From assembly GCA_016124845.1 (NCBI GenBank), contig WGMW01000013.1, positions 46,064 through 110,063 of the forward strand: a stretch of DNA of 64,000 nt, in the 5' to 3' direction. The position numbers and the translations under genes were made by a program. Below, piece by piece: positions 1,499 to 37,901 of the stretch. The notes beneath the pieces are model-generated. The model saw only the letters and a list, made by a program, of their open reading frames with translations, had not been told where the DNA came from and made no database searches. Origin of the DNA: Flavobacteriales bacterium. Its GTDB lineage: Bacteria; Bacteroidota; Bacteroidia; UBA10329. Each line of letters opens with the position of its first letter. Position 1 is the first letter of the stretch.

Positions 1499-4009
1499 TT
1501 ATTCGAAATTCATACAGTTGGCCGCGCAGGTCACCCCATTGGTATCTTCATACGCCTCAAGGTACATGCGCCAGCGCCTTCTGGAGTTATAAGCCTCCGT
1601 ATAGGTGGCGGTATAATTGGTCTGCTCTCCATATCCATAACCATCAGGATAGACCGCGCACTGCACATCATCGTCCTCATCCGTAGCGCTCTGGTTGTTC
1701 TTGAAACCGACCTGGGCCACGGCACAGAAATCCCATGTTCCGAGGTCGTAGCTACCACTTCCACAACCGTAGCAACCGCAGTAGCAATAGCGTTGGAAGT
1801 AGTAGTAGCTTTTGCGCATCCTTATACCTCCGTCTTCAATGTCAAGACCCGTACTTCCTGTACTTCCACCAGCGGCACGGTAAGTTGTGTTAATAACCAC
1901 CTTATATCCATTGGGTGGAGAAAGATGAAGGTTCGAATTAGTGGAGAGAACACGACCCTGAATGGTGAGGTCGCCCCAATCAGCCGAACCATCTACCGTA
2001 CTGCTGCTGCCGCAGGAAGGACAGTCGAACAGAACGCCTCCTCTGAAGGTGGTACGGCCATTGTCGCTTCGGATGCTGAGAAGATTGACGTTGGAACTGT
2101 TCTCGAATATGAAACCATTGCTTGAGTTGTCATACGCTCTGAAACGGATGGCATGCGAGGTAAAACCACCACCAGCGGGCGCGGTTCCGCCACTCAGCGA
2201 AAGACCACCGCCCGATTGACCCATGTAAATGCCCCAGTTCGAATCACCAGCAGTCCACATCCAAATACCTCGCGAACCTCCTCCGTTCACCCCGTTCTGA
2301 ACAACAATTTTTCCATCGGGATGAATGTCTCCATTCACGTGAAGTTTGAAGCCAGGTGATGATGTTCCCACACCTATATTGGCGGTGCCATCACTATAGA
2401 GGTAGGCGGAAGTGTTGGTTCCCAGTCGCAGGCCGCCATTGCTGCTGGTCTGCTGACCTGTAATGCCGACCGTATTGGATGCATTAATATCTCCTATCCA
2501 GGCGTCATCGCCCACTTCAAGAACATTGCCGCTACCATGATTTACATAATAGACCGATGCAGAACCAGAACCGCTGATTCTGAAGTTGGCGCTCTGATCG
2601 GACGCGTTCTGGTTTTGGATGTAGTTGGTGCTGCCTGATGGAAGATCAGACCCAGTAGCAATGGATAAGGTGCCTGAGGACGCTTTGACCAACCCAGAGC
2701 CAAGGGAGCTCATGGTGACTGACCCCGCGCTGCTGATGCTCAGACTATTGTTGGGAGCTGCATAATTTACCTTGAAAGGAGAGGTCCAAGTACCAGGCGA
2801 GTTGTTGTTTCCGTAGTCACCGATCACGAAATTGAATGAGGCATCAAAACCCAACCGCATGTGCCTGGTTCCTCCGCCACCATCGTTCTTACCGATCACC
2901 AAAAACCCATCGGAACCTGAAACTGCCGAGTTGCCTACAGAAAGCGGACCGATCGGGCTGGTGTTTCCGACACCCACATTGCCATTGGCCGCTATTCTCA
3001 TACGTTCCTTGGCAGCCGAAGTGCCAGGAGTGCCCGCAGGCTTTGTGAAGAAAGTGAGGTATCCTCCCTTATTGCTATTGCCTTGGTTTTCTGCGGCATG
3101 TCCTCGTATACCTGCACTTGCGTCTGTTGACGAAGGCCCCGTGTCGTCTGTACTATCAAAGAGCAGCGAGCCAAGTACGTCATCAAGTGCAGTAGTGTTG
3201 TCCTCGCGGGTCAGGTAAAGAGTGGCTCCAGAAGGATTACCCACATTCAAGTTTGCATCGGGAGTTGCGGTTCCAATTCCCACATTTCCTCTAAAATATG
3301 CGTTATAGCCACTACCAGAGGATGCAACCTCAAAAGCCGATAGACCGCTTACATTGTCGCCAACGGCAAAACCCTGTCCTGCCCCGGACGCAAAAGTGAG
3401 AAACTGAGTATGACTGGTGACCAAACCTCGGGTAAAACCAGGTGTAGCACTCATACCGATCCTCCAGTTAGCATCCGAAGGGTCCCAGGTATAAATCGCT
3501 TTGTTTCCTGATGAGCTTGGTAGGGAGATGTTTCCGATTACTTCCAGCTTCTGAAGCGGTCCGGTTGTACCAACACCAACATTACCGTTCACCGTTAATC
3601 CACCCGTTCCAGTAATATTTACCGCACCGGCATCTGCTGTGATCGTTCGACCAGCACCAGCACCCCCTTGATCGTATGACTCATCGAGTGTGTTGTGAGC
3701 AAAATTGGAGGTGTTCGGTATTTCGCGCCAAGTATTTGCCGAGCCATCCCAGTACCAATAAGATTGGGTTGTGGTGTCGTAAACGGTCATCCCCGAAATT
3801 CCTGTTGGCACAAAAGCGGTTCGTTGTGAAGAGGACATGCGAGGAAGCAACGCACCTTTGGTGGTACTTGAGACATCCAATATGGCATTGGCATTCGGAG
3901 CTGCACCCGTGCTATTGATAGAGACCCCGGTCTGAGCAGATGCCCAGTGCGTACAGATCAAGAGTAAGAGGGCGATTATTGGATTTGGTTGAATGGAAAA
4001 ACGTTTCAT
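1499..4009 (-). CDS. large secreted Gly/Ser/Thr-rich repeat protein (Bacteroidota-specific family, function unknown)
   Basis: 836 aa with signal peptide MKRFSIQPNPIIALLLLICTHWASAQ. Conserved N-terminal module ...KGALLPRMSSSQRTAF...GMTVYDTTTQSYWYWDGSANTW, and repeated GNVG(I/V)GTxxP...L.V.G motifs. Acidic, Cys/Tyr-rich C-terminus (CYCGCYGCG). Confidence 0.6.
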   Translation of the reverse strand: MKRFSIQPNPIIALLLLICTHWASAQTGVSINSTGAAPNANAILDVSSTTKGALLPRMSSSQRTAFVPTGISGMTVYDTTTQSYWYWDGSANTWREIPNTSNFAHNTLDESYDQGGAGAGRTITADAGAVNITGTGGLTVNGNVGVGTTGPLQKLEVIGNISLPSSSGNKAIYTWDPSDANWRIGMSATPGFTRGLVTSHTQFLTFASGAGQGFAVGDNVSGLSAFEVASSGSGYNAYFRGNVGIGTATPDANLNVGNPSGATLYLTREDNTTALDDVLGSLLFDSTDDTGPSSTDASAGIRGHAAENQGNSNKGGYLTFFTKPAGTPGTSAAKERMRIAANGNVGVGNTSPIGPLSVGNSAVSGSDGFLVIGKNDGGGGTRHMRLGFDASFNFVIGDYGNNNSPGTWTSPFKVNYAAPNNSLSISSAGSVTMSSLGSGLVKASSGTLSIATGSDLPSGSTNYIQNQNASDQSANFRISGSGSASVYYVNHGSGNVLEVGDDAWIGDINASNTVGITGQQTSSNGGLRLGTNTSAYLYSDGTANIGVGTSSPGFKLHVNGDIHPDGKIVVQNGVNGGGSRGIWMWTAGDSNWGIYMGQSGGGLSLSGGTAPAGGGFTSHAIRFRAYDNSSNGFIFENSSNVNLLSIRSDNGRTTFRGGVLFDCPSCGSSSTVDGSADWGDLTIQGRVLSTNSNLHLSPPNGYKVVINTTYRAAGGSTGSTGLDIEDGGIRMRKSYYYFQRYCYCGCYGCGSGSYDLGTWDFCAVAQVGFKNNQSATDEDDDVQCAVYPDGYGYGEQTNYTATYTEAYNSRRRWRMYLEAYEDTNGVTCAANCMNFE

Positions 4010-4260
4010 GATAAGAACATTATGGTTCTGCGTAGAACTCAGTACAAAGGTAATCGCTCAATAGAGCGTTTTCATGTCGCGTCCATGGAGTCTCAGATTA
4101 AAAAAGGGTTAACAGAACGAATTCAGAAATTAAAACCCACGGACATAATTGAACTTTGGAGCCTATCCAATGTACACGAACAGAAGTTTAAAAATAACAG
4201 AATAATCGGAATGTTGACAGATGCCAGCATTGGTTGTAATCATTCCTTAAGTTCGCCATC

Positions 4261-6339
4261 ATGACAAAAACAATACTGAAAGTGGTATTACTGAGCATGT
4301 TGCCGCATGTTCTTCTGGCGCAGTTCGACCCAAGTAAGATCACAATCGCCCGAGACACTTATGGTGTTCCGCACATTTTTGCCGAAACAGATGCAGAAGT
4401 TGCCTATGGCTTGGCATGGGCAAGCGCAGAAGACCTGTTCCCAACGATGCAGGAAATGCTGTATGCGGGAAAGGGTTTTGCAGGACGTTACCAAGGAAAA
4501 GACGGGGCGGGCCGCGATTTCTTAACGCACGCCTTGGGTTTGCAAAAACTGGTTGCGGAACGGTACGAAACCGACATTTCTCCCGAGTTCAAGAAATATT
4601 TGGAAGGATTCTGTGCGGGAATCAACGCGTATGGAAAAGCGCATTGGAAAGATGAGGACTTCATCAAAAAGGCATTTCCGATAACACCACAGGATGTAGT
4701 GACCAGCTATGTGTTCTCCCTGAGTGTCATCTGCAACGCGCATAAACCGATACAACAGATTCTGGCCAACAAGTTCGATAAGGAAGAAGTGCCGATGGGC
4801 TCCAACGCCTTTGCAGTGAACTCAACGTTTACGGAGGATGGGAACACATATTTGGCTGTAAACCCGCACATGCCGTATGATGGTCCGTTTTCGTTCTATG
4901 AGGCGCATTTGAATTCAGAAGAAGGCCTGAACATTCTTGGTGGTCTTTTTCCTGGTGGAGTTTGCATCTTCCTTGGTAGCAACGAGAATCTGGGTTGGTC
5001 GCACACGTGGAACGGCCTTGACCTCGTGGACACCTACAAGCTGAAAATGCATCCGAAGAAAAAACTCTATTACGAGTATGACGGTGAATGGTTGAAACTG
5101 GAGAAACGCCCCATTTGGTTGAAAGTGAAAGTTGGCGGAATCACAATTCCTGTAAGAATGATGAGCTATTGGAGCAAATATGGCCCAACGCTCCGCTCGA
5201 AAAAAGGCAAGAAGTTTTACTCCGTGAAGTGTCCTGCGGCTGAGGATATCCGCGTGGCAGAGCAATGGTTCCGAATGAACAAGGCGAGCAATTTCACCGA
5301 GTTTAAGAAAGCACTGGAAATGATGGCGCTCGGTAGGTTCAATATTGTCTATGCCGACCGTAACGACACCATTTATTACGTGGATTATGGCATGATTCCC
5401 GACAGAAACACGGACTACAATTATGAAGGGTTGGTTGTGGGAAACACCTCGAAAACCAACTGGGACAAAGTGATTCCTTTAGAGCGCTTACCGTACTATT
5501 TGAACCCAGAATGCGGCTACGTTTTCAACACGAATAATGCACCGTTCAACGCCACTTGCGAATACGGAAACTTGGCGTGCGAAGCGTACCATGATCACAT
5601 GGGTTTCCGAAAGAAGGACAACAATCGAAGCGTGGAATTTCAGAACTTGATCGAGGCGGCAGGAGACCGATTGAGTTGGGATGAGTTCAACGCGATAAAG
5701 TGGAATCAGGACCTTCCCGCAAACCATATTTTCATTGAAAGCATGCAGAACGCCTACAACCTCGATGCGACCAAATACCCAGACATTGCCGATGCGATCG
5801 GGGTGATGCACCGTTGGGATTACAACATGGGACCGCAGAACCTACAGGCCGCGTTTGTCTATGCCACCACACAAAAGGTTTTGAAGAAAACAGGGAAGCG
5901 CTCTCAGGCCGTGGAAGAAGGGCTTTTTGTAGATGACAGCGTTTGGGTCGCTGCCATACGCAAGACGAAAGAGGAGTTCATGCGCCATTTCAATAAACTC
6001 GAAATGCCGTTTGCCGATGTGCAAAAATTCACGCGCAGCGGAAAGACCGTAGGAATGGGCGGAATACCCGATGTGCTGGCCGCCTGCGCCAGCGAATGGG
6101 ACGCGGAAAAAGGGACTATGGAGGCAAAAGGTGGCGACACCTACGTGCAGTTGACGCGTTTCTCAAAGGAAGGTCTGCCTTACATCGAATCGCTGATGGC
6201 GGGCGGAAACTCGGATCGGCCAGACAGTCCGCATTTCAATGATCAGATGGACATGTTGGCGGGGTACAAGACCAAGCCGATGACCTTGGACAAAGAGAAG
6301 GTCCTGAAGGATGCTGTTCGGGTTTATCATCCCGAATAG
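4261..6339 (+). CDS. penicillin amidase/acylase family Ntn-hydrolase (AHL-acylase-like), secreted
   Basis: 692 aa with signal peptide. GSNAFAV motif matches the N-terminal Ser nucleophile region of the beta subunit of penicillin/AHL acylases. Size typical of the family. Confidence 0.8.
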   Translation: MTKTILKVVLLSMLPHVLLAQFDPSKITIARDTYGVPHIFAETDAEVAYGLAWASAEDLFPTMQEMLYAGKGFAGRYQGKDGAGRDFLTHALGLQKLVAERYETDISPEFKKYLEGFCAGINAYGKAHWKDEDFIKKAFPITPQDVVTSYVFSLSVICNAHKPIQQILANKFDKEEVPMGSNAFAVNSTFTEDGNTYLAVNPHMPYDGPFSFYEAHLNSEEGLNILGGLFPGGVCIFLGSNENLGWSHTWNGLDLVDTYKLKMHPKKKLYYEYDGEWLKLEKRPIWLKVKVGGITIPVRMMSYWSKYGPTLRSKKGKKFYSVKCPAAEDIRVAEQWFRMNKASNFTEFKKALEMMALGRFNIVYADRNDTIYYVDYGMIPDRNTDYNYEGLVVGNTSKTNWDKVIPLERLPYYLNPECGYVFNTNNAPFNATCEYGNLACEAYHDHMGFRKKDNNRSVEFQNLIEAAGDRLSWDEFNAIKWNQDLPANHIFIESMQNAYNLDATKYPDIADAIGVMHRWDYNMGPQNLQAAFVYATTQKVLKKTGKRSQAVEEGLFVDDSVWVAAIRKTKEEFMRHFNKLEMPFADVQKFTRSGKTVGMGGIPDVLAACASEWDAEKGTMEAKGGDTYVQLTRFSKEGLPYIESLMAGGNSDRPDSPHFNDQMDMLAGYKTKPMTLDKEKVLKDAVRVYHPE

Positions 6340-6372
6340 TCGGAAATCAACACATCCGCCTACTTTTGACCC

Positions 6373-7512
6373 ATGCTCTTTTCGCAGGTTGTAGGACAGC
6401 AGAAACTCAAGGAGAAACTCATTGGCTCGGTGCAGAATGCACGGGTGGCGCACGCACAGATGCTGGTCGGGCCATGTGGTGCGGGCTCGCTACCGATGGC
6501 GCTGGCCTATGCGCAATATCTGGCGTGTAAGAAAAGAACAGCATCGGATTCGTGCGGCAAATGCGATTCGTGCATCCGATATGCGAAATTGGAACATCCC
6601 GACCTACAGCTCATTTTCCCGAAGAATAAGACGCAGAAGGTCGATCACAAGAATTTTTCGAGCAAGGATTTTCTGCCCGATTGGCGAAAAGCGGTTTTGG
6701 CAAACCCGTACCTCAACCTGAATGATTGGCTCAAAGGCCTCGGCATTGACAACAAGCAGGGCGCCATCAACGTGGATGATAGCCGCGAGATCCTTCAGAA
6801 CTTGAGCTACAAAGCATACGAAGCCGATTACCGCGTGGTGCTCATTTGGTTGGCCGAATACATGAATACCGCAGCGGCAAACAAGCTCTTGAAAATTCTG
6901 GAGGAACCACCAGCACGAACGGTTTTCCTACTGGTGGCAGAGAGCACGGAGAACATGCTTCAGACCATCATTTCGCGGGTGCAGATTCATCGGTTGGGAA
7001 GGTTGAGTGAAGAAGAAATTGCAGGTGCGTTGGCTTCGGAAGATGTTGATTCCGATCAGGTGCAACGCTTGGCACATTTGGCAGATGGAAACCTGAACTT
7101 GGCGAAGCAGCTACTTGATGAGCAGGAATCGGTCACTACATCCGTTAACTTCTTCATAAAATGGATGCGGACGTGTTACGCCATGAATTTGGAACAGCTA
7201 ATGGAGCTGACGGATGAATTCAATACCCTTGGAAGAGAACAACAGAAAGCGCTGCTCGAACAGTCGGCCAGCATATTGAGGAAGGTTCTGATGTACAAGA
7301 CCATTCCTGACATGAAGGGCAAATTGCTCCGTGAAGAGATTGATTTCGTACACAAATTCTCACAGTTCATCGGCTTGGAAAATTCAGGACAGATGTTGGA
7401 AGCCTTGAACGAGGCACACTATCACATTGAGCGGAACGCCAACGCGCGCATCGTTTTCACCGACCTTTCCTTCATTCTCGCTGACCAGCTAAGAAGTATG
7501 GCTTTGCGATAA
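6373..7512 (+). CDS. holB: DNA polymerase III subunit delta'
   Basis: AAA+ clamp-loader features: MLVGPCGAGSLPMALAYAQYLAC P-loop-like segment, CGKCDSC zinc module, SRV/SRC-like ISRVQIH. Followed by a PSP1 gene, as in the Bacillus holB-yaaT arrangement. Confidence 0.85.
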   Translation: MLFSQVVGQQKLKEKLIGSVQNARVAHAQMLVGPCGAGSLPMALAYAQYLACKKRTASDSCGKCDSCIRYAKLEHPDLQLIFPKNKTQKVDHKNFSSKDFLPDWRKAVLANPYLNLNDWLKGLGIDNKQGAINVDDSREILQNLSYKAYEADYRVVLIWLAEYMNTAAANKLLKILEEPPARTVFLLVAESTENMLQTIISRVQIHRLGRLSEEEIAGALASEDVDSDQVQRLAHLADGNLNLAKQLLDEQESVTTSVNFFIKWMRTCYAMNLEQLMELTDEFNTLGREQQKALLEQSASILRKVLMYKTIPDMKGKLLREEIDFVHKFSQFIGLENSGQMLEALNEAHYHIERNANARIVFTDLSFILADQLRSMALR

Positions 7513-7689
7513 CGGACCTCTTTGCCTTCGGCATCTCTCCAAACAAGACAATGGAGTTTTGGAAGCATCAACTATCGGCCTCTGTGAAACGCAGAAACGC
7601 CTAATATCTCTGTGTAATAGAACCCCACACGAACATGGAGACATAAACCATTAAATTTGCCCAATTAGTTAGTTCAAGCAACCGAAAAG

Positions 7690-8889
7690 ATGGGATGTAG
7701 CGGATGTAGTAATGGAAAGACCGAGAATGGTCTTCCCCGCGGCTGCAAGAACAATGGAAGTTGCCAAACAGGCAGTTGCGATAAGTTGAGTGTTTTCAAC
7801 TACCTGTCCAACATGGAAGACACCGTAGGTTACACGGTTTCAGATTTCGTGGAGGTCAGGTTCAAGAATACGAGAAAGCAGTTTTTCCGTCAGGAGAACC
7901 TGCGATTGTCAGAAGGTGATGTGGTAGCAGTGGAGGCTTCACCGGGTCACGATATCGGAACAGTTTCTTTGGCGGGCGACCTTGTTCTCTTGCAAATGCG
8001 CAAGCGGAATGTAGATTCCGCCACAGGCGATTTTAAAAAGGTGTACCGAAAGGCCACCGAAGCCGACATTGCCAGTTGGCAAGAAGCAGTAGATCTGGAA
8101 AAGCAAACCAAGACACGGGCTCGCGTCATTGCGCGCGAATTGGGTCTCAATATGAAGATCAGCGATGTTGAGTTTCAAGGAGACAAGAGCAAGGCGATCT
8201 TCTATTACACGGCCGAAGACCGTGTGGATTTCCGTGAGTTGATCCGCAAGTATGCGGATGAGTTCAAGGTGCGGATCGAGATGAAGCAGATCGGTTCGCG
8301 ACAGGAGGCCGCGCGTTTGGGTGGCATCGGTCCGTGTGGACGAGAGTTATGCTGCTCAACGTGGTTGACCGATTTCCGAACCGTAAGTACGAGTGCCGCG
8401 CGTTATCAGCAGCTGTCGCTCAATCCGCAGAAACTGGCGGGGCAATGCGGGAAACTGAAGTGCTGTCTGAACTACGAGCTGGACAGTTACTTGGATGCGT
8501 TGAAGGATTTTCCGAGCGCGAAAACCAAACTTGAGACCGAGCGGGGAGTTGCTTTCACACAGAAAGTGGACATCTTCAAAGGGCTGATGTGGTTCACGCT
8601 GAAGGACGACCCAAGCAAGTTCATTGAAGTTCCTGTGGAGCGTGTGAAGGAAATCCTCAAAATGAACAAGGAAGGAAAGAAACCTGCCGTGCTGGTTGAT
8701 GAGTCTTATGCTGCGCCTGTAAAAGTGAAGCACGACTATGAGAACGTAGTGGGGCAGGACGATCTTACACGGTTTGACCGTCCGAAAGGTCAGGGAAACC
8801 GTAAAAAGAAATCGGGCAACAAGCGTAGGAATAACCGCAATCGCAACCGAAACAACAACAAGGGCAATCAGAACAACAATGCCTCGTAA
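7690..8889 (+). CDS. PSP1 C-terminal domain protein (RicT/YaaT-like) with Cys-rich N-terminal extension and basic N/R/K tail
   Basis: Core ...VGYTVSDFVEVRFKN...GDVVAVE... resembles YaaT/PSP1. Conserved position downstream of holB. Alternative start ATG at 7813 would remove the 41-aa Cys-rich leader. Confidence 0.7.
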   Translation: MGCSGCSNGKTENGLPRGCKNNGSCQTGSCDKLSVFNYLSNMEDTVGYTVSDFVEVRFKNTRKQFFRQENLRLSEGDVVAVEASPGHDIGTVSLAGDLVLLQMRKRNVDSATGDFKKVYRKATEADIASWQEAVDLEKQTKTRARVIARELGLNMKISDVEFQGDKSKAIFYYTAEDRVDFRELIRKYADEFKVRIEMKQIGSRQEAARLGGIGPCGRELCCSTWLTDFRTVSTSAARYQQLSLNPQKLAGQCGKLKCCLNYELDSYLDALKDFPSAKTKLETERGVAFTQKVDIFKGLMWFTLKDDPSKFIEVPVERVKEILKMNKEGKKPAVLVDESYAAPVKVKHDYENVVGQDDLTRFDRPKGQGNRKKKSGNKRRNNRNRNRNNNKGNQNNNAS

Positions 8890-25191: not shown

Positions 25192-25941
25192 ATGTCCAAG
25201 ATCTTTTGGCCGTTCAAAATGCTGTGGAGAGGATGGTTCTTCGTGAGCTGCTTCCTCACGCTGATGCCGTTGTTTCCGTTCTTCTACTATTTCGTTCACA
25301 ACGAAAAGCACTTCAAAAAGGCCATGTTCCTGAAGCGTATCTGGGCACGCATGATCTGTTTCGTGACGGGTGTTTGGAGCACCGTGGAGGTGGAAGAACC
25401 GCTCGTAGATGGCCCGTACATCATCGTTCCCAACCATGTTTCGTTTGTGGATATCGTGCAATCGTACATCGCATTTCCCATCTATTTCCATTACATGGGA
25501 AAGGTACAATTGGGCAAATGGTGGTTCTTCAACATTTTCTTCCACAAGATGAATATCCTGATCGATCGCACGAACCTGCGGGCTTCTTACAACTCGTATC
25601 AGCGCGCGGCCGATGACCTTAAAAAAGGCATTTCCATTGGCGTTTATCCCGAATCGATCATTCCCGATAATCCTCCGAAGATGCTGCCCTTCAAGAACTC
25701 ACCGTTCAAGATCGCCATCGAAGCACAAGTTCCCGTTGTTCCCGTTACTTTTGTGGGCGGCTGGAAAATTCTGCCCGCCAAACCACACGTGTGGGAAGGC
25801 GGTAGACCTGGAGGAACGTTCATCAAAATTCACCGTCCGATTCCTACAAAAGGAATGACCGTGAAAGATGTGGACAGCCTGCGGGACAAGGCACAGGATG
25901 TGATCCGACAAGAACTGAAACGACATGGATATAACGGATAA
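25192..25941 (+). CDS. plsC: 1-acyl-sn-glycerol-3-phosphate acyltransferase (lysophospholipid acyltransferase)
   Basis: HX4D motif (VPNHVSFVDI), N-terminal TM, PlsC-like size. Confidence 0.8.
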   Translation: MSKIFWPFKMLWRGWFFVSCFLTLMPLFPFFYYFVHNEKHFKKAMFLKRIWARMICFVTGVWSTVEVEEPLVDGPYIIVPNHVSFVDIVQSYIAFPIYFHYMGKVQLGKWWFFNIFFHKMNILIDRTNLRASYNSYQRAADDLKKGISIGVYPESIIPDNPPKMLPFKNSPFKIAIEAQVPVVPVTFVGGWKILPAKPHVWEGGRPGGTFIKIHRPIPTKGMTVKDVDSLRDKAQDVIRQELKRHGYNG

Positions 25942-26227
25942 AACGGTTGATGAGCTGGCGCACTTGGCGCGATTGCAGTTTGAAGGCGAGGAAAAAGAGC
26001 GCATCAAGAAGGATCTGAACAAGATCCTCACCTTCATGGAAAAGCTGAATGAGCTTGATACCGATGGCGTGGAACCGCTCATTTACATGTCGGAAGAACT
26101 GAACGTGATGCGCAAGGACGAGAAGAAACAGACCATCACACAAAAGCAAGCACTCAAAAACGCTCCGAAAGCCGATTCAGATTACTTCAAGGTTCCGAAG
26201 GTTCTAAAGAATCCAGATGCTGAATAG
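25925..26227 (+). CDS. gatC: Asp-tRNA(Asn)/Glu-tRNA(Gln) amidotransferase subunit C
   Basis: 100 aa, MDITDKTVDELAHLARLQFEGEEKERIKKDLNKIL... typical GatC. Its last about 55 nt are repeated at 28398..28452. Confidence 0.85.
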   Translation: MDITDKTVDELAHLARLQFEGEEKERIKKDLNKILTFMEKLNELDTDGVEPLIYMSEELNVMRKDEKKQTITQKQALKNAPKADSDYFKVPKVLKNPDAE

Positions 26228-26346
26228 CTCGGATTCGCTTTCGTTCAGAGAAATAATGTTGAAAACGTTTCTTACAAACGGCTGAACGTTTGAAGAAACC
26301 ATCTATTTTTGATAACCATGTTTAAGGTTGCATAACTTGGTTATCC

Positions 26347-27612
26347 ATGAAAGAGTATTATAGCATTTCGGAAGTAGCCGACCTTCTGGGCAAGAGCAAG
26401 GAGACGCTGAGACGTTGGGACAACAACGGAAAGTTGACCGCAGTGCGCGAACCGATGAGCAACTATCGGGTTTACCACAAAGATCAGCTGCGCATTTTCG
26501 ATGAGTTGGCGTTTCTGTTCAATGAGGCTGAAACACAGGACGCGGTCAAAGCAAAACTTGATTATTCGGTTTTAGAATTGTTTGCAGGTGCCGGTGGGCT
26601 TGCCATCGGTCTGGAACAGTCAGGACTGAAATGTGTAGGACTCAACGAGATCGATCATTGGGCAGCTGAAACGCTGAGAAGGAACCGCCCGAACTGGAAC
26701 GTGATGGAAGGGGATGTCCGCAATATGGATTTCTCCGAATTTGAAGGAAAAGTTGATGTGGTCACAGGCGGATTTCCGTGTCAGGCGTTCAGCTACGCTG
26801 GGAAAAAGCTGGGGCTGAAAGACGCTCGCGGAACGCTCTTCTACGAATTTGCGCGCGTGGTACAGCAGACCAGGCCACTGATCTGCATGGGCGAAAATGT
26901 CCGTGGGCTTCTGAACCATGATGGTGGTAGAACGCTTGAAGGTCTGCGCTCCATTTTGGACGAGATCGGGTATCGGGTTCTGGAGCCGAAAATTCTCAAG
27001 GCAATTTTTTATAATGTTCCTCAAAAAAGAGAGCGTTTGATCTTGATCGGCATCAGAAAGGACGTTGATGTCGATTTCCTTTTTCCGAAACCATACAAAA
27101 AGATCTACACCGTAAAGGACGCCCTGAAGGCCGGAGAACTTTACGCCACCGATGTGCCGAAATCTGCTGGTTCCAAATACCCCGAACACAAGAAGAAGGT
27201 CTTAGATCTGGTTCCTCCAGGAGGTTATTGGCGCGACCTTCCAATTGACCTCCAAAAGGAGTATATGCAGAAGAGCTTTTATCTCGGAGGAGGTAAAACA
27301 GGGATGGCACGTAGGATAAGTTGGGATGAACCAAGCCTTACCCTAACATGCAGTCCAGCGCAGAAGCAAACGGAAAGATGCCATCCTGATGAAACCAGGC
27401 CATTTACCGTTAGAGAGTACGCGCGGATACAGACATTTCCGGATGATTGGAAATTTGCGGGCGCTGTTTCACAACAGTACAAACAGATCGGCAATGCCGT
27501 TCCGTGCAACCTTGCCAAAGAGCTCGGTTTTTCATTGGTCCGGTTTCTGAATAGTGCTTATTCTTCCAAGCTCATTGATGCCAGAACACAAAAGACCGTT
27601 GTAAGTGGATGA
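26347..27612 (+). CDS. DNA (cytosine-5)-methyltransferase with N-terminal HTH regulatory domain (type II R-M modification subunit)
   Basis: C5-MTase motifs I (FAGAGGLAIG), IV (GGFPCQAFS), VI (ENVRGL), X (QIGNAVP). First about 55 aa (MKEYYSISEVADLLGKSKETLRRWDNNGKL...) form a MerR/excisionase-like HTH, as in autoregulating M.SsoII/M.MspI-type enzymes. Confidence 0.9.
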   Translation: MKEYYSISEVADLLGKSKETLRRWDNNGKLTAVREPMSNYRVYHKDQLRIFDELAFLFNEAETQDAVKAKLDYSVLELFAGAGGLAIGLEQSGLKCVGLNEIDHWAAETLRRNRPNWNVMEGDVRNMDFSEFEGKVDVVTGGFPCQAFSYAGKKLGLKDARGTLFYEFARVVQQTRPLICMGENVRGLLNHDGGRTLEGLRSILDEIGYRVLEPKILKAIFYNVPQKRERLILIGIRKDVDVDFLFPKPYKKIYTVKDALKAGELYATDVPKSAGSKYPEHKKKVLDLVPPGGYWRDLPIDLQKEYMQKSFYLGGGKTGMARRISWDEPSLTLTCSPAQKQTERCHPDETRPFTVREYARIQTFPDDWKFAGAVSQQYKQIGNAVPCNLAKELGFSLVRFLNSAYSSKLIDARTQKTVVSG

Positions 27613-27647
27613 TGTGACATTGCTTACTTTCACCGTTCATAAACAGC

Positions 27648-28379
27648 TTGAACGGAATGGCAAAACTCAATTGGATCTCTGACGGGAATCTGAACGCAGC
27701 AGTTTCTCACCTGCTTGAAAAGGCGAAAGCTGCAAAATCAGCAGCTGAAAAGGAGTTTGGAAAGAATGTCATAGACCCGTTCTCAGCACTTTTCGAGATT
27801 GCCGCATTCGAATTGAATTATGACGATTGGAAGAAAAGTGAAACCGCGCGTCAGGCACAGAAAACGCTTCAGAATCACGTTGGGGAATTTCATCAACGAA
27901 TATTGGGAAGCGTTGACGGTTGGGAGAACTTGGAAGTTGGAAACGAGGTTGATCTTGCAAATCACAACCGGAAGATCATTGCCGAGATAAAGAACAAGTA
28001 CAATACCATGAAAGGCAGCGACAAGTCTGGTCTTTACCACACGCTCGATGACCTGACAATGAGGAAGTCAAGTAAATTCCGCGGCTATACTGCTTACTAC
28101 GTTACAATTATTCCAAACAGGAAGGCCAAGTTCAATAAGTTGTTTACGCCTTCTGATAAGAGTAAAGGAGCGAAGTGTCCTCCCAATGAATTGATCAGAG
28201 AAATTGATGGGGCAAGTTTTTATGATCTGGCAACTGGTGTCACCAACTCATTGAAAGAACTTTTCGAGGTGTTACCTTCTGTTGTGTCCGAAGTGAGTGA
28301 AGGAAAACTATCCGTTTCTAAAGAAGAGGTGCAACAGTTTTTTGCCGCTGCGTACGGAGTGCTGGAGAAACCAAGATGA
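27648..28379 (+). CDS. type II restriction endonuclease (PD-(D/E)XK fold), cognate to upstream MTase
   Basis: 243 aa directly downstream of MTase. GNEVDL...IIAEIKNK matches the D...(D/E)xK nuclease motif. Sizes (421/243 aa) are reminiscent of Eco47II/Sau96I-type systems, but specificity cannot be established. Confidence 0.65.
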   Translation: MNGMAKLNWISDGNLNAAVSHLLEKAKAAKSAAEKEFGKNVIDPFSALFEIAAFELNYDDWKKSETARQAQKTLQNHVGEFHQRILGSVDGWENLEVGNEVDLANHNRKIIAEIKNKYNTMKGSDKSGLYHTLDDLTMRKSSKFRGYTAYYVTIIPNRKAKFNKLFTPSDKSKGAKCPPNELIREIDGASFYDLATGVTNSLKELFEVLPSVVSEVSEGKLSVSKEEVQQFFAAAYGVLEKPR

Positions 28380-28397
28380 TGAGAAGGGCTCACCGGA

Positions 28398-28452
28398 CCG
28401 ATTCCGATTACTCAAAGCTCCACATGTTCTTAAGAATCCTGATGCTGAATAA
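28398..28452 (+). repeat. degenerate direct repeat of gatC 3' end (remnant KAPHVLKNPDAE* coding segment)
   Basis: Aligns to 26172..26227 with about 80% identity (one 1-nt indel). Immediately followed by the start of the next gene, as expected for the original gatC end. Confidence 0.8.
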
Positions 28453-33236: not shown

Positions 33237-34244
33237 ATGAGATACCTTTTCCTGTTGGCCGTTCTTGGCCTTGTAAGCTGTTCGCAACCAAAGCAAGAAG
33301 AAGCGGTTGCCGAAACACCATCTTGCGAATACAATGATTTCAAAACCCCTGGCAATTATCAGGCTGGCGGAGTTCAGATGATCGACCTGAAAGAAGGCTA
33401 CAAGGTTTGGACGAAGCGTTTTGGAAACAGCCCGATGAAAGTGCTGATCCTGCACGGTGGCCCAGCGGGAACGCACGAATACTTGGAGAGCTTCCAGAGC
33501 TTTTTCCCGAAGGCGAATATTGAGTTTTTTGAATACGACCAGCTTGGTTCGTATTACTCCGATCAACCGACTGACACCAGCCTTTACAACATACCACGGT
33601 TTGTAGAGGAGGTAGAGCAGGTGCGCCAGAAATTGGGTTTGAACAAGGACAACTTTATTCTTCTCGGACAAAGTTGGGGCGGTATTCTTGCCATGGAATA
33701 TGCACTCAAGTACCAACAGAACCTGAAAGGATTGGTAATCTGCAACATGACGGCCGATTTCCATAAATACGCGGCTTACAACAACAAACTCCGCGAAGAA
33801 CTCCGCCCGAGTTTGGTGGACACGCTGAAGATGTATGAAGACGCGGGCGATTACTCAAACCCTGTTTACTTGGAATTGGTGGAGAAGGAATTCTACGCCA
33901 AACACATTTGCCGCATTTATCCATTTCCTGAGCCAGTTGCGCGCAGCTTCTCGCACTTCAACATGGATGTTTATACCTATATGCAAGGCCCAAGCGAGTT
34001 TGTTCCAGGCGGTATTCTGAAGGACTGGAGCGTTTGGGACAGATTGCATGAAATTTCTGTTCCCACGTTGATGGTCGGAGCCAAGTACGACAGCATGAAC
34101 CCTGAGGAAATGAAGGAGATGTCAACCCTTGTTCAGAACGGGGAATACCTCTACTGCCCGAATGGCAGCCACCTCGCCCTGTGGGACGACCAGCAGGTTT
34201 TTATGGATGGGGTGATCGGGTTTATTCATCGGGTATTCGAATGA
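33237..34244 (+). CDS. proline iminopeptidase-family alpha/beta hydrolase (lipoprotein)
   Basis: Lipoprotein signal MRYLFLLAVLGLVSCSQ, GQSWGG nucleophile elbow, prolyl aminopeptidase-like size. Last about 40 nt are repeated at 34961..35007. Confidence 0.8.
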   Translation: MRYLFLLAVLGLVSCSQPKQEEAVAETPSCEYNDFKTPGNYQAGGVQMIDLKEGYKVWTKRFGNSPMKVLILHGGPAGTHEYLESFQSFFPKANIEFFEYDQLGSYYSDQPTDTSLYNIPRFVEEVEQVRQKLGLNKDNFILLGQSWGGILAMEYALKYQQNLKGLVICNMTADFHKYAAYNNKLREELRPSLVDTLKMYEDAGDYSNPVYLELVEKEFYAKHICRIYPFPEPVARSFSHFNMDVYTYMQGPSEFVPGGILKDWSVWDRLHEISVPTLMVGAKYDSMNPEEMKEMSTLVQNGEYLYCPNGSHLALWDDQQVFMDGVIGFIHRVFE

Positions 34245-34272
34245 GAGCATTTCTGTAACTTCGTAATCGGAA

Positions 34273-34920
34273 ATGTCTCAAAGACTTAAGGATGAATTAC
34301 GAGCTGTCATTTCAGGAAAGAGCAAGGTTAGGTTCGGAGCAACTATCCAAGCAGTTATCAGTAACCTTGGAACAGGCGCGCCAACAAGCACAACGACTCA
34401 AAGCCTTAAGCAGGTCAAAGGTGAAGAAGCAGAGCGCATAAGTGCTTTTGCTCGCAGATCGGGGCTTTGGCAGGAAAGCATCGATATTTCAAACTATGTG
34501 AGCGAGGGCGCAGAACAGAGGGTTTATCTTAAAGACCAAGACCATGTTCTGAAACTGAATGATGCCATCTATTTTGAAACGTGGCGCGACTATCTGCACA
34601 ATCTGTTGCTGCATAATTACTTTTTTACTGACACGGCCTATGAGCTGGTAGGATTTACACAAATAGACCATGTCTTGCATGCCATGGTAAAACAGCGATT
34701 TGTAATAAGTACGATACTTACAGACCTTTCTGAAGTTCGCAGTTTCTTGGAAACGAATGGTTTTAAGAATACGCGAAACAACGATTATTTACATGCTGGC
34801 GCTGGCGTTATTCTGGAGGATCTGCACGATGAGAATGTTCTTACTCAGAATGGCATGCTCTATTTTATTGACACAGTGTTTTATCTGACCCAAGCGTTTT
34901 GGACCGATGAACATGAATAG
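34273..34920 (+). CDS. hypothetical protein with atypical protein-kinase-like motifs (small stand-alone kinase fold?)
   Basis: 215 aa. Gly-rich NLGTGAP. VYLK (beta3 Lys-like). LEDLHDENVL resembles catalytic-loop HxDxxxxN of RIO/Kdo/Bud32-type kinases. YFIDT resembles the DFG-equivalent. No signal peptide. Confidence 0.45.
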   Translation: MSQRLKDELRAVISGKSKVRFGATIQAVISNLGTGAPTSTTTQSLKQVKGEEAERISAFARRSGLWQESIDISNYVSEGAEQRVYLKDQDHVLKLNDAIYFETWRDYLHNLLLHNYFFTDTAYELVGFTQIDHVLHAMVKQRFVISTILTDLSEVRSFLETNGFKNTRNNDYLHAGAGVILEDLHDENVLTQNGMLYFIDTVFYLTQAFWTDEHE

Positions 34921-34960
34921 TTGAGCTACCTTGCCACCAACGGCAATTAAACGGGTTCTT

Positions 34961-35007
34961 TGGATGATGTGATCGGGTTTATTCACCGAACGTTTGAGGA
35001 GGATTAA
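34961..35007 (+). repeat. degenerate direct repeat of the iminopeptidase gene 3' end (remnant LDDVIGFIHRTFEED* segment)
   Basis: Aligns with 34205..34244 (MDGVIGFIHRVFE*) at about 78% nt identity. 10 of 13 encoded residues identical. Confidence 0.75.
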
Positions 35008-36161
35008 CGCCTTGCTCGGCTGAGCCGATAGGAAACCCCAACGGTTGGTAGGATGTAAGGTTTCCCGACCTTATTGATGAACGTAAACGGTTGGCCCAAG
35101 CTCCATATCAGGTTCATTCCAGCAAAACCCGAAAATCCTTTGTCAAGGTTCACTTTCCCGCGCAGCGTGACATAAGGATCCACACTTGCATTGAACAATG
35201 AGGCGGCAAGCCCCCCACCAACCTGAAACCCTGTGTTGTTCCAAAGAAACGCCATTCCCATATCCAAGTGGCCTTGAAGCAATGGCATGGCGGTTCCCAA
35301 GCCTGTTCGGAAATAGTAGTTGGCCACTTTGCGAGGAGAAAGAGGCACATAAAGCGTGTAGTGAACCGTTACCACAGCAGGGCCGAAAATGCTTAGACCG
35401 AATTCGCTGTTTCGCCAAATTAGCCCTGTATCCTGCTGAGCAACTTCGGCAAGCGTGTTTCGCAAGCGTTCCCGCTCGGTTTTACGGTAAGCGTTTCGTT
35501 CTGGCCGTTCCATCCTTGCGTATGCCACAAACTCCTTGTGCTGTTTCCACGAAGGAATGCGATACCCGATATAAGCACTTGGCCAAATAGAGAAAACGGG
35601 ATAGTTGTTCCGTTTGCTTATCGTTGGCCCATATTCGGACTGGCCACCGATCAAGTAGAGTTTTGTCCCGAACAGGAATCCCGTGGGAGCCTGATACCGA
35701 TACCCGACCGAGCCGAAGAGGTTGAATTCCATGTAGGCAGGGATAGGTTCCCAATATGGGTTTTGAGTTTGCGAGAAGTATACGTTCCATAGGCCACCAC
35801 CAATCGTCAATCGGTTTCTGCGCCTCCCGAATTCGGCTGAAAGCGCGTATATCAGAGAGGCCCTGTATTTGATATATCCAGCGGTATAGGGACCGAGAGC
35901 TCCAGCACCGAAACGAATGTTCAAGGTCATGATGTCGGTCATGATCGGAGAACCCTCAAGGTTCAAGGTCACGCCTGTTCCCAGCCCTAAGAACTCAGTG
36001 TAGGAAGCAACCCTGCCCAAAAACGGGCGGAAGGCCACCTTACGGCCAGCACCATTCACATCATCGATCTTTGGGAGTTGAGCCAGGCCAAACTTCCCAA
36101 CAAGAAGGATTAAAACAAGCGTAGTTGTCCAGCGCATGCGTTGGACAACGAAACGAAACAA
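35004..36161 (-). CDS. hypothetical outer-membrane beta-barrel protein
   Basis: Signal peptide, alternating amphipathic beta-strand pattern, aromatic-rich, C-terminal ...VSYRLSRARR. 385 aa. Confidence 0.55.
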   Translation of the reverse strand: MFRFVVQRMRWTTTLVLILLVGKFGLAQLPKIDDVNGAGRKVAFRPFLGRVASYTEFLGLGTGVTLNLEGSPIMTDIMTLNIRFGAGALGPYTAGYIKYRASLIYALSAEFGRRRNRLTIGGGLWNVYFSQTQNPYWEPIPAYMEFNLFGSVGYRYQAPTGFLFGTKLYLIGGQSEYGPTISKRNNYPVFSIWPSAYIGYRIPSWKQHKEFVAYARMERPERNAYRKTERERLRNTLAEVAQQDTGLIWRNSEFGLSIFGPAVVTVHYTLYVPLSPRKVANYYFRTGLGTAMPLLQGHLDMGMAFLWNNTGFQVGGGLAASLFNASVDPYVTLRGKVNLDKGFSGFAGMNLIWSLGQPFTFINKVGKPYILPTVGVSYRLSRARR

Positions 36162-36191: not shown

Positions 36192-37901
36192 TTAAACCGC
36201 CTCCACGGTCAACCCAGCATCCGTCTTGGTCACCTTGGCAACGCCCATAGAGGTTAGCCCTTTGATGCTCTTGTCCCACTGCTTTCCGCTGAGAGCAGAT
36301 CGGGTTTTCAGGTCGTTCAGGTCCATGGGCGAGTTCTTGGCAAGAATGTCGAAAACAAGTTTCTCGTTCTCGTTCAGCTCTACTTTCTTCTCTGTCTTTT
36401 TCTCTGGCCGCATCTGAGGGAAGAACAGAATGTCCTGAATAGAATGCTGGTCGGTCAGCATCATGGCCAAGCGATCCATGCCGATGCCCATTCCTGAAGT
36501 TGGCGGCATGCCGTATTCCAATGCGCGCAAGAAATCCTGATCGATCATCATGGCCTCATCATCACCACGGTCGGCCAAACGCATTTGCTCTTCAAAACGC
36601 TCGCGCTGCTCCAACGGATCGTTCAGCTCAGAGTATGCGTTGGCAATCTCCTTTCCGCAGATCATCAGCTCAAAGCGCTCCACCAATCCTTCTTTGCTGC
36701 GGTGCTTTTTGGTCAGTGGCGACATTTCAACGGGATAATCCGTGATGAATGTTGGCTGAACATAATTCGCCTCACATTTCTCACCAAAGATCTCATCGAT
36801 GAGTTTGCCTTTGCCCATGCTTGGGTCAACCTCCACGCCAAGGTCTTTGCACACTTGGCGCAATTCTTCCTCACCCATGCCAGTGATGTCAACACCTGTA
36901 TGCTCCTTGATGGCATCCAGCATCGGTACGCGTGGATAAGGCGCTTTGAAGCTCACCTCCATGTTTCCGTACTTGATCTCGGTCGTGCCATTCAGCGCAA
37001 TACAGGCTTTTTCGAGAAGCTTCTCGGTGAAGTCCATCATCCAATTGTAATCCTTGTAGGCCACGTAGATCTCCATCACCGTGAACTCAGGATTGTGTGT
37101 GCGGTCCATGCCTTCGTTACGGAAATCCTTGGCGAACTCGTACACGCCATCGAAACCGCCCACGATCAATCGCTTCAGGTAAAGCTCGTTCGCAATACGC
37201 AGATAAAGGGGAATGTTCAGCGCGTTATGATGCGTGATGAACGGACGTGCAGCTGCACCACCAGGAATGGCCTGCAGGATAGGCGTTTCCACCTCCAAAA
37301 TATCATGCTCGTTGAAGTAATCGCGGAACACGCTGTAAAGCTTCGTGCGCTTCTTGAAAACCTCTTTGGTTTTCGGGTTCACCACAAGATCCACGTACCG
37401 CTGACGATAGCGGAACTCCGCATCGGTCACCGCATCATGCACCTTTCCGTCTGCATCGGTCTTTACCACAGGCAGCGGCTTCACCGACTTGGCAAGCACG
37501 GTCAATTCCTTCACATGTACTGAAGTTTCGCCAACCTGCGTTCTGAAAACATGCCCTTTAATGCCGATGAAATCACCGAAATCGAGCAGTTTCTTGAACA
37601 CCTCATTATAAAGCGTCTTGTCATCGCCAGGGCAGATCTCGTCTCTCGCGATGTAGATCTGCACACGGCCAGAAGCATCTTGCAGCTCCGCAAACGAGGC
37701 TTTTCCCATCACACGCACGCTCATCAAGCGACCAGCAAGAACCACATCGTTCAACTCTTCGCCACCCTCGAAACGTTTCTTCAGGTCCGTAGCAAGAATG
37801 TTCACGGGGAATTCGGCCGCTGGATACGGGTCAATGCCAAGGTCTTCGAGCTTCTTCAGCGCATCGCGTCTGACAATCTCCTGTTCGCTTAGTTCGTGCA
37901 T
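36192..37901 (-). CDS. lysS: lysine--tRNA ligase (class II) with C-terminal extension
   Basis: Internal start MHELSEQEIVRRDALKKLEDLGIDPYPA.... Anticodon-binding OB domain, class II motifs. The 138-aa upstream extension of the track ORF is Arg/Pro-rich junk overlapping the REP element. Confidence 0.9.
   Translation of the reverse strand: MHELSEQEIVRRDALKKLEDLGIDPYPAAEFPVNILATDLKKRFEGGEELNDVVLAGRLMSVRVMGKASFAELQDASGRVQIYIARDEICPGDDKTLYNEVFKKLLDFGDFIGIKGHVFRTQVGETSVHVKELTVLAKSVKPLPVVKTDADGKVHDAVTDAEFRYRQRYVDLVVNPKTKEVFKKRTKLYSVFRDYFNEHDILEVETPILQAIPGGAAARPFITHHNALNIPLYLRIANELYLKRLIVGGFDGVYEFAKDFRNEGMDRTHNPEFTVMEIYVAYKDYNWMMDFTEKLLEKACIALNGTTEIKYGNMEVSFKAPYPRVPMLDAIKEHTGVDITGMGEEELRQVCKDLGVEVDPSMGKGKLIDEIFGEKCEANYVQPTFITDYPVEMSPLTKKHRSKEGLVERFELMICGKEIANAYSELNDPLEQRERFEEQMRLADRGDDEAMMIDQDFLRALEYGMPPTSGMGIGMDRLAMMLTDQHSIQDILFFPQMRPEKKTEKKVELNENEKLVFDILAKNSPMDLNDLKTRSALSGKQWDKSIKGLTSMGVAKVTKTDAGLTVEAV

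Follow-up and report, generated by a model that had tools for sequence, protein, structure and literature searches.

Here, we describe a stretch of 64,000 nucleotides (nt) from a Flavobacteriales bacterium (GenBank assembly GCA_016124845.1, contig WGMW01000013.1, positions 46,064 to 110,063 of the forward strand; hereafter, the window), in which a gene for a protein-kinase-like enzyme of 215 amino acids (aa), a member of the Kinase-PolyVal family, lies directly behind pip, a gene for a lipoprotein of the proline iminopeptidase family. We consider it likely that this gene is an intact minimal kinase that travels as a stand-alone, horizontally mobile single-gene cassette and has come to lie in the last ~50 nt of pip. 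The insertion into the 3' end of pip is shown by empty sites in related genomes. The protein family is already known, though uncharacterized; what is new is that the family behaves as a cassette of one gene that recurs with long target duplications, a variant of a known insertion class with a non-nuclease cargo.

A single kinase gene between two copies of the pip terminus

The locus is composed of the following features, given in window coordinates:

33237-34244, plus strand: pip, gene for a proline iminopeptidase-family lipoprotein, the host whose 3' end is the insertion target (TIGR01250, E=1.6e-99)
34195-34244, plus strand: left copy of the pip terminus, now in use, ending ...VFMDGVIGFIHRVFE and stop (nhmmer E=1.1e-13)
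34245-34272, plus strand: 28-nt spacer with a putative Bacteroidetes -7-type promoter box, TAACTTCG, at 34256-34263, 9 nt 5' of the ATG
34273-34920, plus strand: stand-alone Kinase-PolyVal gene, 215 aa
34921-34952, plus strand: 32-nt cassette tail (...CCACCAACGGCAATYAAAC), conserved in the related loci L087-L093
34953-35007, plus strand: right copy, the displaced resident pip terminus (...LDDVIGFIHRTFEED and stop), non-functional (repeat search; nhmmer E=4.6e-9)
35004-36137, minus strand: convergent 377-aa gene for a secreted protein without a Pfam family
36192-37901, minus strand: lysS, lysyl-tRNA synthetase, ancestral convergent partner of pip (the two genes converge in the related loci L007, L008 and L012)

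A first-pass annotation of the window had placed the end of pip at 34244, a 215-aa open reading frame (ORF) at 34273-34920 and a degenerate copy of the pip terminus behind it, and all three are present in the sequence. Its start for the degenerate copy, 34961, needs correction by one position: nucleotide homology begins at about 34953, and the in-frame codon series that encodes LDDVIGFIHRTFEED and the stop occupies 34960-35007. The copy itself withstands closer inspection. Left and right copies are 83% identical over 36 nt without gaps (37 matches in a gapped alignment of 56 columns) and share an exact core of 17 nt, and a profile built from the pip termini of relatives detects the right copy with E=4.6e-9. 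When the pip end (...FMDGVIGFIHRVFE and stop) is compared with the whole 64-kb window, the right copy is the top match, with 34 of 49 positions against 27 of 49 for the runner-up, and the 32-nt repeat core scores 25 of 32, the maximum in 200 shuffles being 22. The TAA of the right copy (35005-35007) overlaps the minus-strand stop (35004-35006) of the convergent 377-aa gene.

Between the two copies, the kinase gene is the sole ORF and a small partner ORF was not seen, which bears out the earlier reading of a single-gene insertion. The cassette consists of the -7 promoter box, the ORF and the 32-nt tail, about 0.73 kb in total within an insert of 0.76 kb, and this insert has a GC content of 0.41 compared to about 0.50 in the flanks. 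The last ~15 nt of the left copy are of the cassette-borne type (HR[IV]F[ESR] before the stop). The possibility that the 32 nt at 34921-34952 (AGC TAC CTT GCC, 'SYLA') extend the pip remnant was rejected, since they match pip in register at 8 of 32 positions, which is the level of chance, and are also conserved as cassette sequence in relatives. A scan of the locus for sigma-70 promoters and terminators was uninformative, as expected for Bacteroidota.

Empty sites and the identity of the remnant

Relatives were found by scanning species-representative genomes with pip, followed by tblastn mapping, and the junction downstream of pip was compared in the window and in loci L003, L007, L008, L010, L012 and L087-L093; pip orthologues in L003 and L007-L013 are 72-86% identical. 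Three of these relatives (L007, L008 and L012), in which pip is 83-85% identical, have an empty site, with pip converging directly on lysS so that the two stops overlap. The pip ends of these three read ...GVIGFIHRTFEYQN and stop (HRTFEYQN) in L007, ...HRTFENQN in L008 and ...HRTFEYKN in L012. The right copy of the window is identical to the 3' part of the L012 pip end over a run of 30 nt. In the left copy, now in use, an exact run of 34 nt matches the 5' part of the same pip end, after which the sequence diverges into a different tail (HRVFE and stop).

Because the empty-site pip ends match the right copy, this comparison indicates that the remnant is the resident pip allele and that the tail in current use arrived with the insert. 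Thus, pip stays intact, the cassette having come together with a replacement terminus. We considered a fresh, simple target-site duplication for the window copy and rejected it, since the non-functional right copy is the one that matches the empty sites, whereas the functional left copy has a divergent tail. The first-pass annotation had regarded the right copy, abutting the stop of the convergent gene that it called an outer membrane protein ('OMP'), as the ancestral junction; the resident pip terminus is confirmed by the three empty sites, and its ancestral partner is lysS rather than the 'OMP'. The latter, the 377-aa gene, is absent from L003, L007, L008 and L012 and has a 46%-identical homolog in L010. 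Relatives with a duplicated terminus and no insert, which the annotation had named as contrary evidence, did not appear among the loci compared: every relative with two copies carries the kinase between them. More generally, the pip/lysS junction (35004-36161 in the window) is an insertion hot spot, empty in three relatives and elsewhere filled by differing occupants, namely the kinase alone, the 377-aa secreted protein, LTD/Por_Secre_tail, redoxin, or SulP and AAA_14.

Exchange of the cassette between species

Kinases 79-90% identical to that of the window occur in L003, L087-L090, L092 and L093, always 28 nt past pip and behind the HR[IV]F[ESR] tail, and the 28-nt spacer itself is conserved in L003 and L087-L093. 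The kinase of L091 (83% identical) sits behind a detached copy of the pip end (HRTFGKD and stop) instead. In all of these relatives except L003, the kinase is followed by the 32-nt tail and then by a pip copy of the resident type (HR[TQ]F[EK]..). The clearest case is L087, which resembles an L007-type site cleanly filled, with the remnant VFMEGVIGFIHRTFEYQN and a stop overlapping that of lysS. By contrast with this constant left side, the right-hand neighbors of the cassette vary by genome (lysS, 'OMP', LTD/Por_Secre_tail, redoxin, SulP).

Third codon positions allow the age of the cassette to be compared with that of its surroundings. Between the window and L003, their identity is 0.52 in the body of pip and 0.59 in lysS, and rises to 0.76 in the last 45 codons of pip and 0.79 in the kinase gene; Fisher tests on these differences gave p=1e-10 and p=5e-8. 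The kinase genes of the window, L003, L087 and L088 are 0.79-0.92 identical to one another at third positions, compared to 0.51-0.58 for the pip body in the three pairs among the window, L003 and L088 (L087 comes without a pip body). The point within pip at which identity steps up varies from pair to pair. Codon constraint is not the cause of the high identity of the kinase, since the value for the L092 kinase falls to 0.61-0.68. Judged by these positions, the cassette and the stretch of pip next to it are of much more recent origin than the genes on either side, and the cassette has therefore moved between related species after their divergence, into this one site and together with a variable length of the pip 3' end.

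We believe that recombination would be the simplest route for this exchange, with one crossover in the pip body or left copy and the other in the ~50-nt right copy, which would pair with the recipient's own pip end as a second homology arm. This two-crossover route, which we infer from the patterns rather than from observed events, would explain the chimeric copies, the constant left junction and the genome-specific right neighbors.

The locus L091 holds three copies of the pip terminus (510-556, 2161-2209 and 2917-2962). Here, the pip end has received a DUF5122/Por_Secre_tail gene of 512 aa, which lies upstream of the kinase cassette and has a new pip tail of its own (...HNQFNQRP and stop) whose stop overlaps the next ATG. 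The insertions in L091 are nested and serial, so that the array looks cassette-like.

Long direct repeats flank the kinase family at unrelated sites

To extend the comparison beyond pip, 80 metagenome loci with members of the family were fetched, and the 600 nt upstream of the kinase ORF were compared with the 600 nt downstream. Direct repeats of 23-254 nt with 77-100% identity flank the kinase in 30 of 86 testable loci, compared to 7 of 144 for other ORFs in the same loci (Fisher p=3.8e-9). The repeats at these 30 loci fall into 22 clusters without mutual similarity, which indicates that they derive from the targets and are not the ends of an element. Inverted matches were found in six of the 86 loci, mostly as palindromes inside the repeat. 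The inserted segments are small, with 8-450 nt before the ORF and 2-557 nt after it, and in eight loci the right repeat begins no more than 12 nt past the kinase stop. Together, these comparisons suggest that the family is recurrently flanked, across Bacteroidota, by long (23-254 nt) duplications of unrelated target sequences.

An instructive case comes from an isolate genome, Algoriphagus litoralis (L094, QGOL01000006.1), in which a 60%-identical kinase occupies an unrelated locus between direct repeats of ~136 nt that are 92% identical (6745-6884 and 7640-7779). The repeat consists of a bidirectional terminator and the last ~95 nt of the convergent gene galE. In L178, where GalE is 94% identical, the galE repeat sequence occurs once and no kinase adjoins galE.

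The locus L164 has a 97%-identical repeat of ~180-190 nt (4755-4952 and 5626-5823) that includes the last ~14 nt and the stop of the kinase gene. Since this repeat covers the end of the ORF, the C-terminal tail of the protein would be derived from the target, in line with the variable C-termini of the family past a conserved FW motif.

The sole non-coding feature shared by the family is a TAnnTTTG box, found no more than 30 nt from the start at 70 of the 93 family loci, which we take to be a promoter on the basis of the Bacteroidetes consensus. In most members, the box lies just 3-9 nt upstream of the ATG, which implies leaderless or near-leaderless mRNAs. We also considered whether the right repeat generally opens with a terminator-like hairpin, as fork stalling or hairpin recognition would suggest, and rejected this, since folding energy ranks in the top 5% at only 3 of 23 loci; the median percentile of local folding energy at the right repeat is 0.49, with clear hairpins in L094, L101 and L171. 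One of the few repeat-positive control ORFs is a 153-aa Y1_Tnp (IS200/RAYT-like) gene in L095 (4196-4657), flanked by 114-nt direct repeats and situated 2.3 kb upstream of a kinase gene that comes after a gene for gamma-glutamyltranspeptidase (GGT).

Primary insertions would belong to the class known as insertion with long target duplication, the 0.76-kb insert having no recombinase gene of its own. They may arise through the repair of staggered breaks, through template switching, or through homology-facilitated illegitimate recombination.

The inserted gene encodes a predicted minimal protein kinase

The 215-aa protein matches PF18762 (Kinase-PolyVal) with E=1.9e-63 and 213.7 bits against a cut-off of 27. 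This match, its sole one in Pfam, spans residues 50-207 and covers positions 2-160 of the 160 in the profile. The architecture is that of an N-terminal three-helix extension (residues 1-63) followed by a minimal kinase core without a C-terminal subdomain. Its AlphaFold (AF2) model is confident (pLDDT 89, pTM 0.88); Foldseek returned CK2, Csk, Lpg2603 and SteC as top matches in the PDB, and in BFVD a 'PolyVal Ser/Thr/Tyr kinase' and a large polyvalent protein. A PDB profile search with the kinase sequence found nothing, NCBIfam gave no match, and matches in PHROGs were at chance level (E>=0.07). There is no HipA-family domain (PF18762 being the only one) and no small partner ORF in the cassette, as would be looked for in a HipA-like toxin-antitoxin kinase.

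In an alignment of 42 homologs (57-100% identity), the residues SEGAEQ.V (77-84), K94 (in VLKLND), H114/N115, Q141, ILEDLHDENV (with D183 and N188) and FIDT (with D200) are invariant. The kinase passages of Iyer, Burroughs, Anand, de Souza and Aravind (2017, J Bacteriol 199:e00245-17; PMC5512222) give as hallmarks of the family a Glu ahead of strand 2, a Gln in the N-lobe's final strand, a long insert between the conserved His and Asp, and the loss of the C-terminal subdomain. In the window protein, E78 and E81 of SEGAEQ precede the strand at 82-86, Q141 lies within the strand at 134-142, 68 residues span H114 to D183, and the chain stops 15 residues past D200. The first-pass annotation had likened the protein, from the letters alone, to minimal RIO/Kdo/Bud32-like or phage polyvalent-protein kinases, and both the PF18762 match and the predicted kinase fold, for which it had proposed structure prediction as a check, agree with the polyvalent-protein type. 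Its assignment of LEDLHDENVL as the catalytic loop and of FID as the DFG equivalent also holds, given the invariance of D183, N188 and D200. Its N-lobe motifs had to be replaced: NLGTGAP, proposed as the Gly-rich loop, varies in sequence, is disordered in the model with low pLDDT (residues 36-41) and falls outside the Pfam domain. The role of ATP-binding loop belongs to SEGAEQ (77-82), which is invariant, and of the lysines it is K94 in VLKLND that is invariant, rather than the one in VYLK.

Taken together, the profile match, the conserved residues and the model suggest that the ORF encodes an intact, catalytically competent minimal protein-kinase-like enzyme. It would phosphorylate proteins, with ATP bound at SEGAEQ and K94, D183 as the catalytic base and Mg bound by N188 and D200. 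The gene is under purifying selection, with identity between the window and L003 of 0.94 at codon positions 1 and 2 compared to 0.79 at position 3. Our literature search found no biochemical data for any member of PF18762.

A word-indexed search yielded 3602 relatives (clusters at 90% identity). The best 120 of these are nearly all 207-227 aa long, with five of 234-279 aa, and carry Bacteroidota names wherever the source gives one; stand-alone versions in Bacteroidetes are already mentioned in the kinase passages of Iyer et al. (2017). A search of 1.8 billion representatives gave 1782 clusters, many of which are proteins of 600-3900 aa with the entire 210-aa module, including the N-terminal helices, and the stand-alone forms fall into few clusters at 50% identity.

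Possible functions of the kinase

In the contexts of 12 homologs, the kinase gene lies behind pip, behind genes for PF00144-family hydrolases, behind GGT and once among PIN, Fic, SLFN/AlbA and AAA_14 genes, and no partner gene is conserved across them. The last case (L096, 1019-9594) is an islet with an SLFN/AlbA_2 ATPase, PIN and Fic genes each with a small partner, and AAA_14/DUF4143, and is the only defense- or toxin-antitoxin-like neighborhood among those examined. A pattern scan of viral contigs found one related locus, L097 (IMGVR_UViG_3300026116_000040, 3958-7311), in which a 47%-identical kinase with the same N-terminal extension is fused to DUF6496 in a protein of 444 aa, preceded by a 669-aa protein with DUF3140 and DUF6321. 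We infer that the enzyme is an active protein kinase that may act in the conflict between phages or mobile elements and their hosts, or in its own retention. With the present data, defense, counter-defense, addiction and phosphorylation of small molecules are indistinguishable.

The first-pass annotation had named a role in defense or conflict as plausible, for example as an abortive-infection kinase. In anti-phage defense, such a kinase would sense infection, phosphorylate host or phage proteins and thereby block phage growth. We regard this role as possible and rather unlikely, and found no direct support for it. It would fit a domain lineage that, in the kinase passages of Iyer et al. (2017), is known only from conflict contexts, the polyvalent proteins of phages and conjugative elements, and it would fit the fused copy on the phage contig, the patchy presence of the gene among close relatives in a variable hot spot, the L096 islet, and an insertion architecture like that of the restriction-modification (R-M) system of the window. 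However, a phage-encoded relative suggests counter-defense at least as much, PADLOC-DB 2.0 returned 0 families at E<=1 for the kinase protein, and a partner gene that could serve as sensor, antitoxin or effector is missing. Moreover, about 11 of the 12 contexts have housekeeping or secreted-enzyme neighbors rather than defense islands, and an identity of 53-60% across orders is unusually high for a defense gene.

A kinase of small molecules, that is, an antibiotic or metabolite phosphotransferase serving as an accessory resistance or detoxification gene, appears improbable to us. The position of several copies directly behind genes for periplasmic hydrolases (pip, the PF00144 beta-lactamase family, GGT) could be read in this way, and so could the absence of the C-terminal substrate-binding subdomain, although Iyer et al. 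(2017), in their kinase passages, placed the retained core nearer to protein kinases. The best structural matches come from protein kinases, among them the minimal effector kinases NleH, OspG, HopBF1 and SteC, injected polyvalent proteins of phages contain the same module, and the neighboring genes vary without the logic of an operon.

Evidence against a mobile cassette and other origins of the locus

Several observations weigh against the interpretation of the kinase gene as a mobile cassette. No repeat was detectable at 56 of the 86 kinase loci, and the right pip copy is absent from L003. True empty-site controls exist for the pip site alone; for the remaining 21 clusters, duplication of the target is deduced from the geometry of the repeats, and no empty sites for the other repeat-flanked insertions were found among the fetched loci. 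The galE case is only partly validated, since L178 differs in its left flank. Most loci come from metagenome contigs; the divergence of the repeats (77-97% identity) argues against an assembly artifact. A search for cassette ends or inverted repeats conserved across independent insertions found nothing shared besides the -7 box, and a recombinase gene was found neither in the insert nor among the 10 genes on either side, the rest of the 64-kb window not having been screened. Finally, PADLOC, NCBIfam and PHROG provide no informative match for the kinase, and stand-alone members are 53-100% identical across several orders of Bacteroidota, so that a conserved cellular role could also be involved.

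A different origin, by site-specific integration, would make the pip terminus an att site at which a tyrosine or serine recombinase encoded elsewhere inserted a small element with a copy of the gene end in its attP. Elements in the 3' ends of genes classically bring a replacement terminus and leave direct repeats, the same position of pip is used throughout the clade, and L091 has a second cassette at the pip end. We nevertheless hold this origin to be very unlikely. In addition to the lack of a recombinase among the genes screened, the 22 unrelated repeat sequences of 23-254 nt are unlike att cores, the exact core common to the window copies is just 17 nt long, the two right-hand repeats of L091 do not have the same upstream boundary, and the synonymous step inside pip indicates homologous crossovers at variable positions.

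It is likewise very unlikely that the kinase is a vertically inherited old neighbor of pip, with the pip-like stretch as debris of a tandem duplication and the gene lost from relatives, since, despite a pip-kinase adjacency conserved in six related genomes and the ability of direct-repeat recombination to delete the cassette precisely and restore an 'empty'-type pip end, synonymous-site identity in the same genome pairs is 0.79-0.92 in the cassette and 0.51-0.59 in pip and lysS, the insert's GC content is 9 points lower, homologs with 53-73% identity occupy unrelated loci, and flanking repeats are enriched 10-fold over other ORFs.

We therefore retain the mobile cassette as the probable explanation of the locus. 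The filled sites, the empty sites and the nested case illustrate how single accessory genes may enter the compact genomes of Bacteroidota without harm to the abutting genes, which would be spared since the cassette brings or duplicates the gene end. A non-nuclease cargo at at least 22 unrelated sites argues for a general mechanism and makes the hypothesis of R-M-inflicted breakage testable. More speculatively, and with considerable doubt, stand-alone Kinase-PolyVal genes may be an unrecognized class of minimal selfish mobile units of Bacteroidota, whose spread or retention depends on the kinase. Such a unit, a promoter and one ORF of ~0.7 kb, would repeatedly colonize gene ends and intergenic sites without a recombinase of its own, and the kinase could contribute through post-segregational 'addiction', phage exclusion, or the modification of a host repair or recombination factor. 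If this were true, insertion with long target duplication would be a general mode of mobility, independent of breaks inflicted by R-M systems. The family is abundant, with about 3,600 clusters at 90% identity, and is highly conserved, experimentally untouched and kin to injected phage effector domains.

Comparison with known systems

Among minimal kinases, NleH1/OspG, HopBF1 and SteC belong to the type III effectors, which are secreted and exert their action in eukaryotic hosts, and several of them need a host co-factor for activity. The window kinase differs from these in having no secretion signal and in its N-terminal three-helix extension; a sequence relationship to them is not detectable, identities being 14-17%, without a PDB profile match.

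The relationship to polyvalent proteins is closer, given the full-length match to the Kinase-PolyVal profile and the diagnostic features set out in the kinase passages of Iyer et al. (2017). Polyvalent proteins combine 2-15 effector domains in one polypeptide of a phage, prophage or conjugative element, whereas the window kinase is a solitary, chromosomal, single-domain gene of 215 aa with its own putative promoter rather than a multidomain injected protein. Those kinase passages do not describe the gene as moving in a single-gene cassette between repeats. Genes for phage functions or conjugation are not found near the kinase of the window, whose flanks are pip, the secreted protein of unknown type and lysS.

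With respect to mechanism, homology-facilitated illegitimate recombination was reportedly described by de Vries and Wackernagel in 2002 as a gain of genes in transformable bacteria that is driven by flank homology. The window locus would resemble this model in that a crossover in a conserved gene, pip, imports foreign DNA and a second join, by short homology or illegitimate recombination, falls near the end of the recipient gene and leaves a duplicated terminus. Why the kinase is so often the cargo is not explained by this model alone.

Insertion with long target duplication is said to have been described for R-M units by Nobusato et al. in 2000. The class, as defined for R-M units by Furuta, Abe and Kobayashi (2010, NAR 38:2428; PMC2853133), has repeats of >30 bp, which may overlap the 3' end of a gene, lacks a mobility gene, and shows an empty site in a relative. 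The kinase insertions differ in their cargo, which is a kinase in place of R and M genes, so that they are a variant and not members of the class as originally defined. They also differ in their hosts, which are Bacteroidota, and in their driver, since a kinase cannot make double-strand breaks, and the breakage by R-M systems that was proposed as the cause of such insertions therefore cannot apply to it. In the window, the repeats measure ~50 nt (34195-34244 and 34953-35007); as to their derivation from the target, the right copy has its 30-nt exact run to the empty site and the left copy only its 5' 34 nt. These diverged copies, with a foreign tail on the upstream one, fit recombinational import rather than a fresh duplication; at other loci of the family, repeats reach 97-100% identity.

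An R-M unit of type II within the same window, comprising a MerR-fused C5 methylase (26347-27612) and an Eco47II-family endonuclease (27648-28379), lies between two copies of the 3' end of GatC (~26169-26227 and 28392-28451; 81% identical over 43 nt), in agreement with the annotation, which had ascribed the same architecture to both insertions. The right GatC copy is frameshifted (region 25925-28451), and in the syntenic relative L003 the R-M unit and the AHSA1 gene that follows it are absent. Like the class of Furuta et al. (2010), the kinase insertion at pip lacks a mobility gene and carries direct repeats of >30 bp for which empty-site genomes have one copy (a single terminus in L007, L008 and L012, the same site filled in L087); across the family, the repeats vary in length from site to site and can overlap the 3' end of a neighboring gene, and the insert is atypical in GC content.

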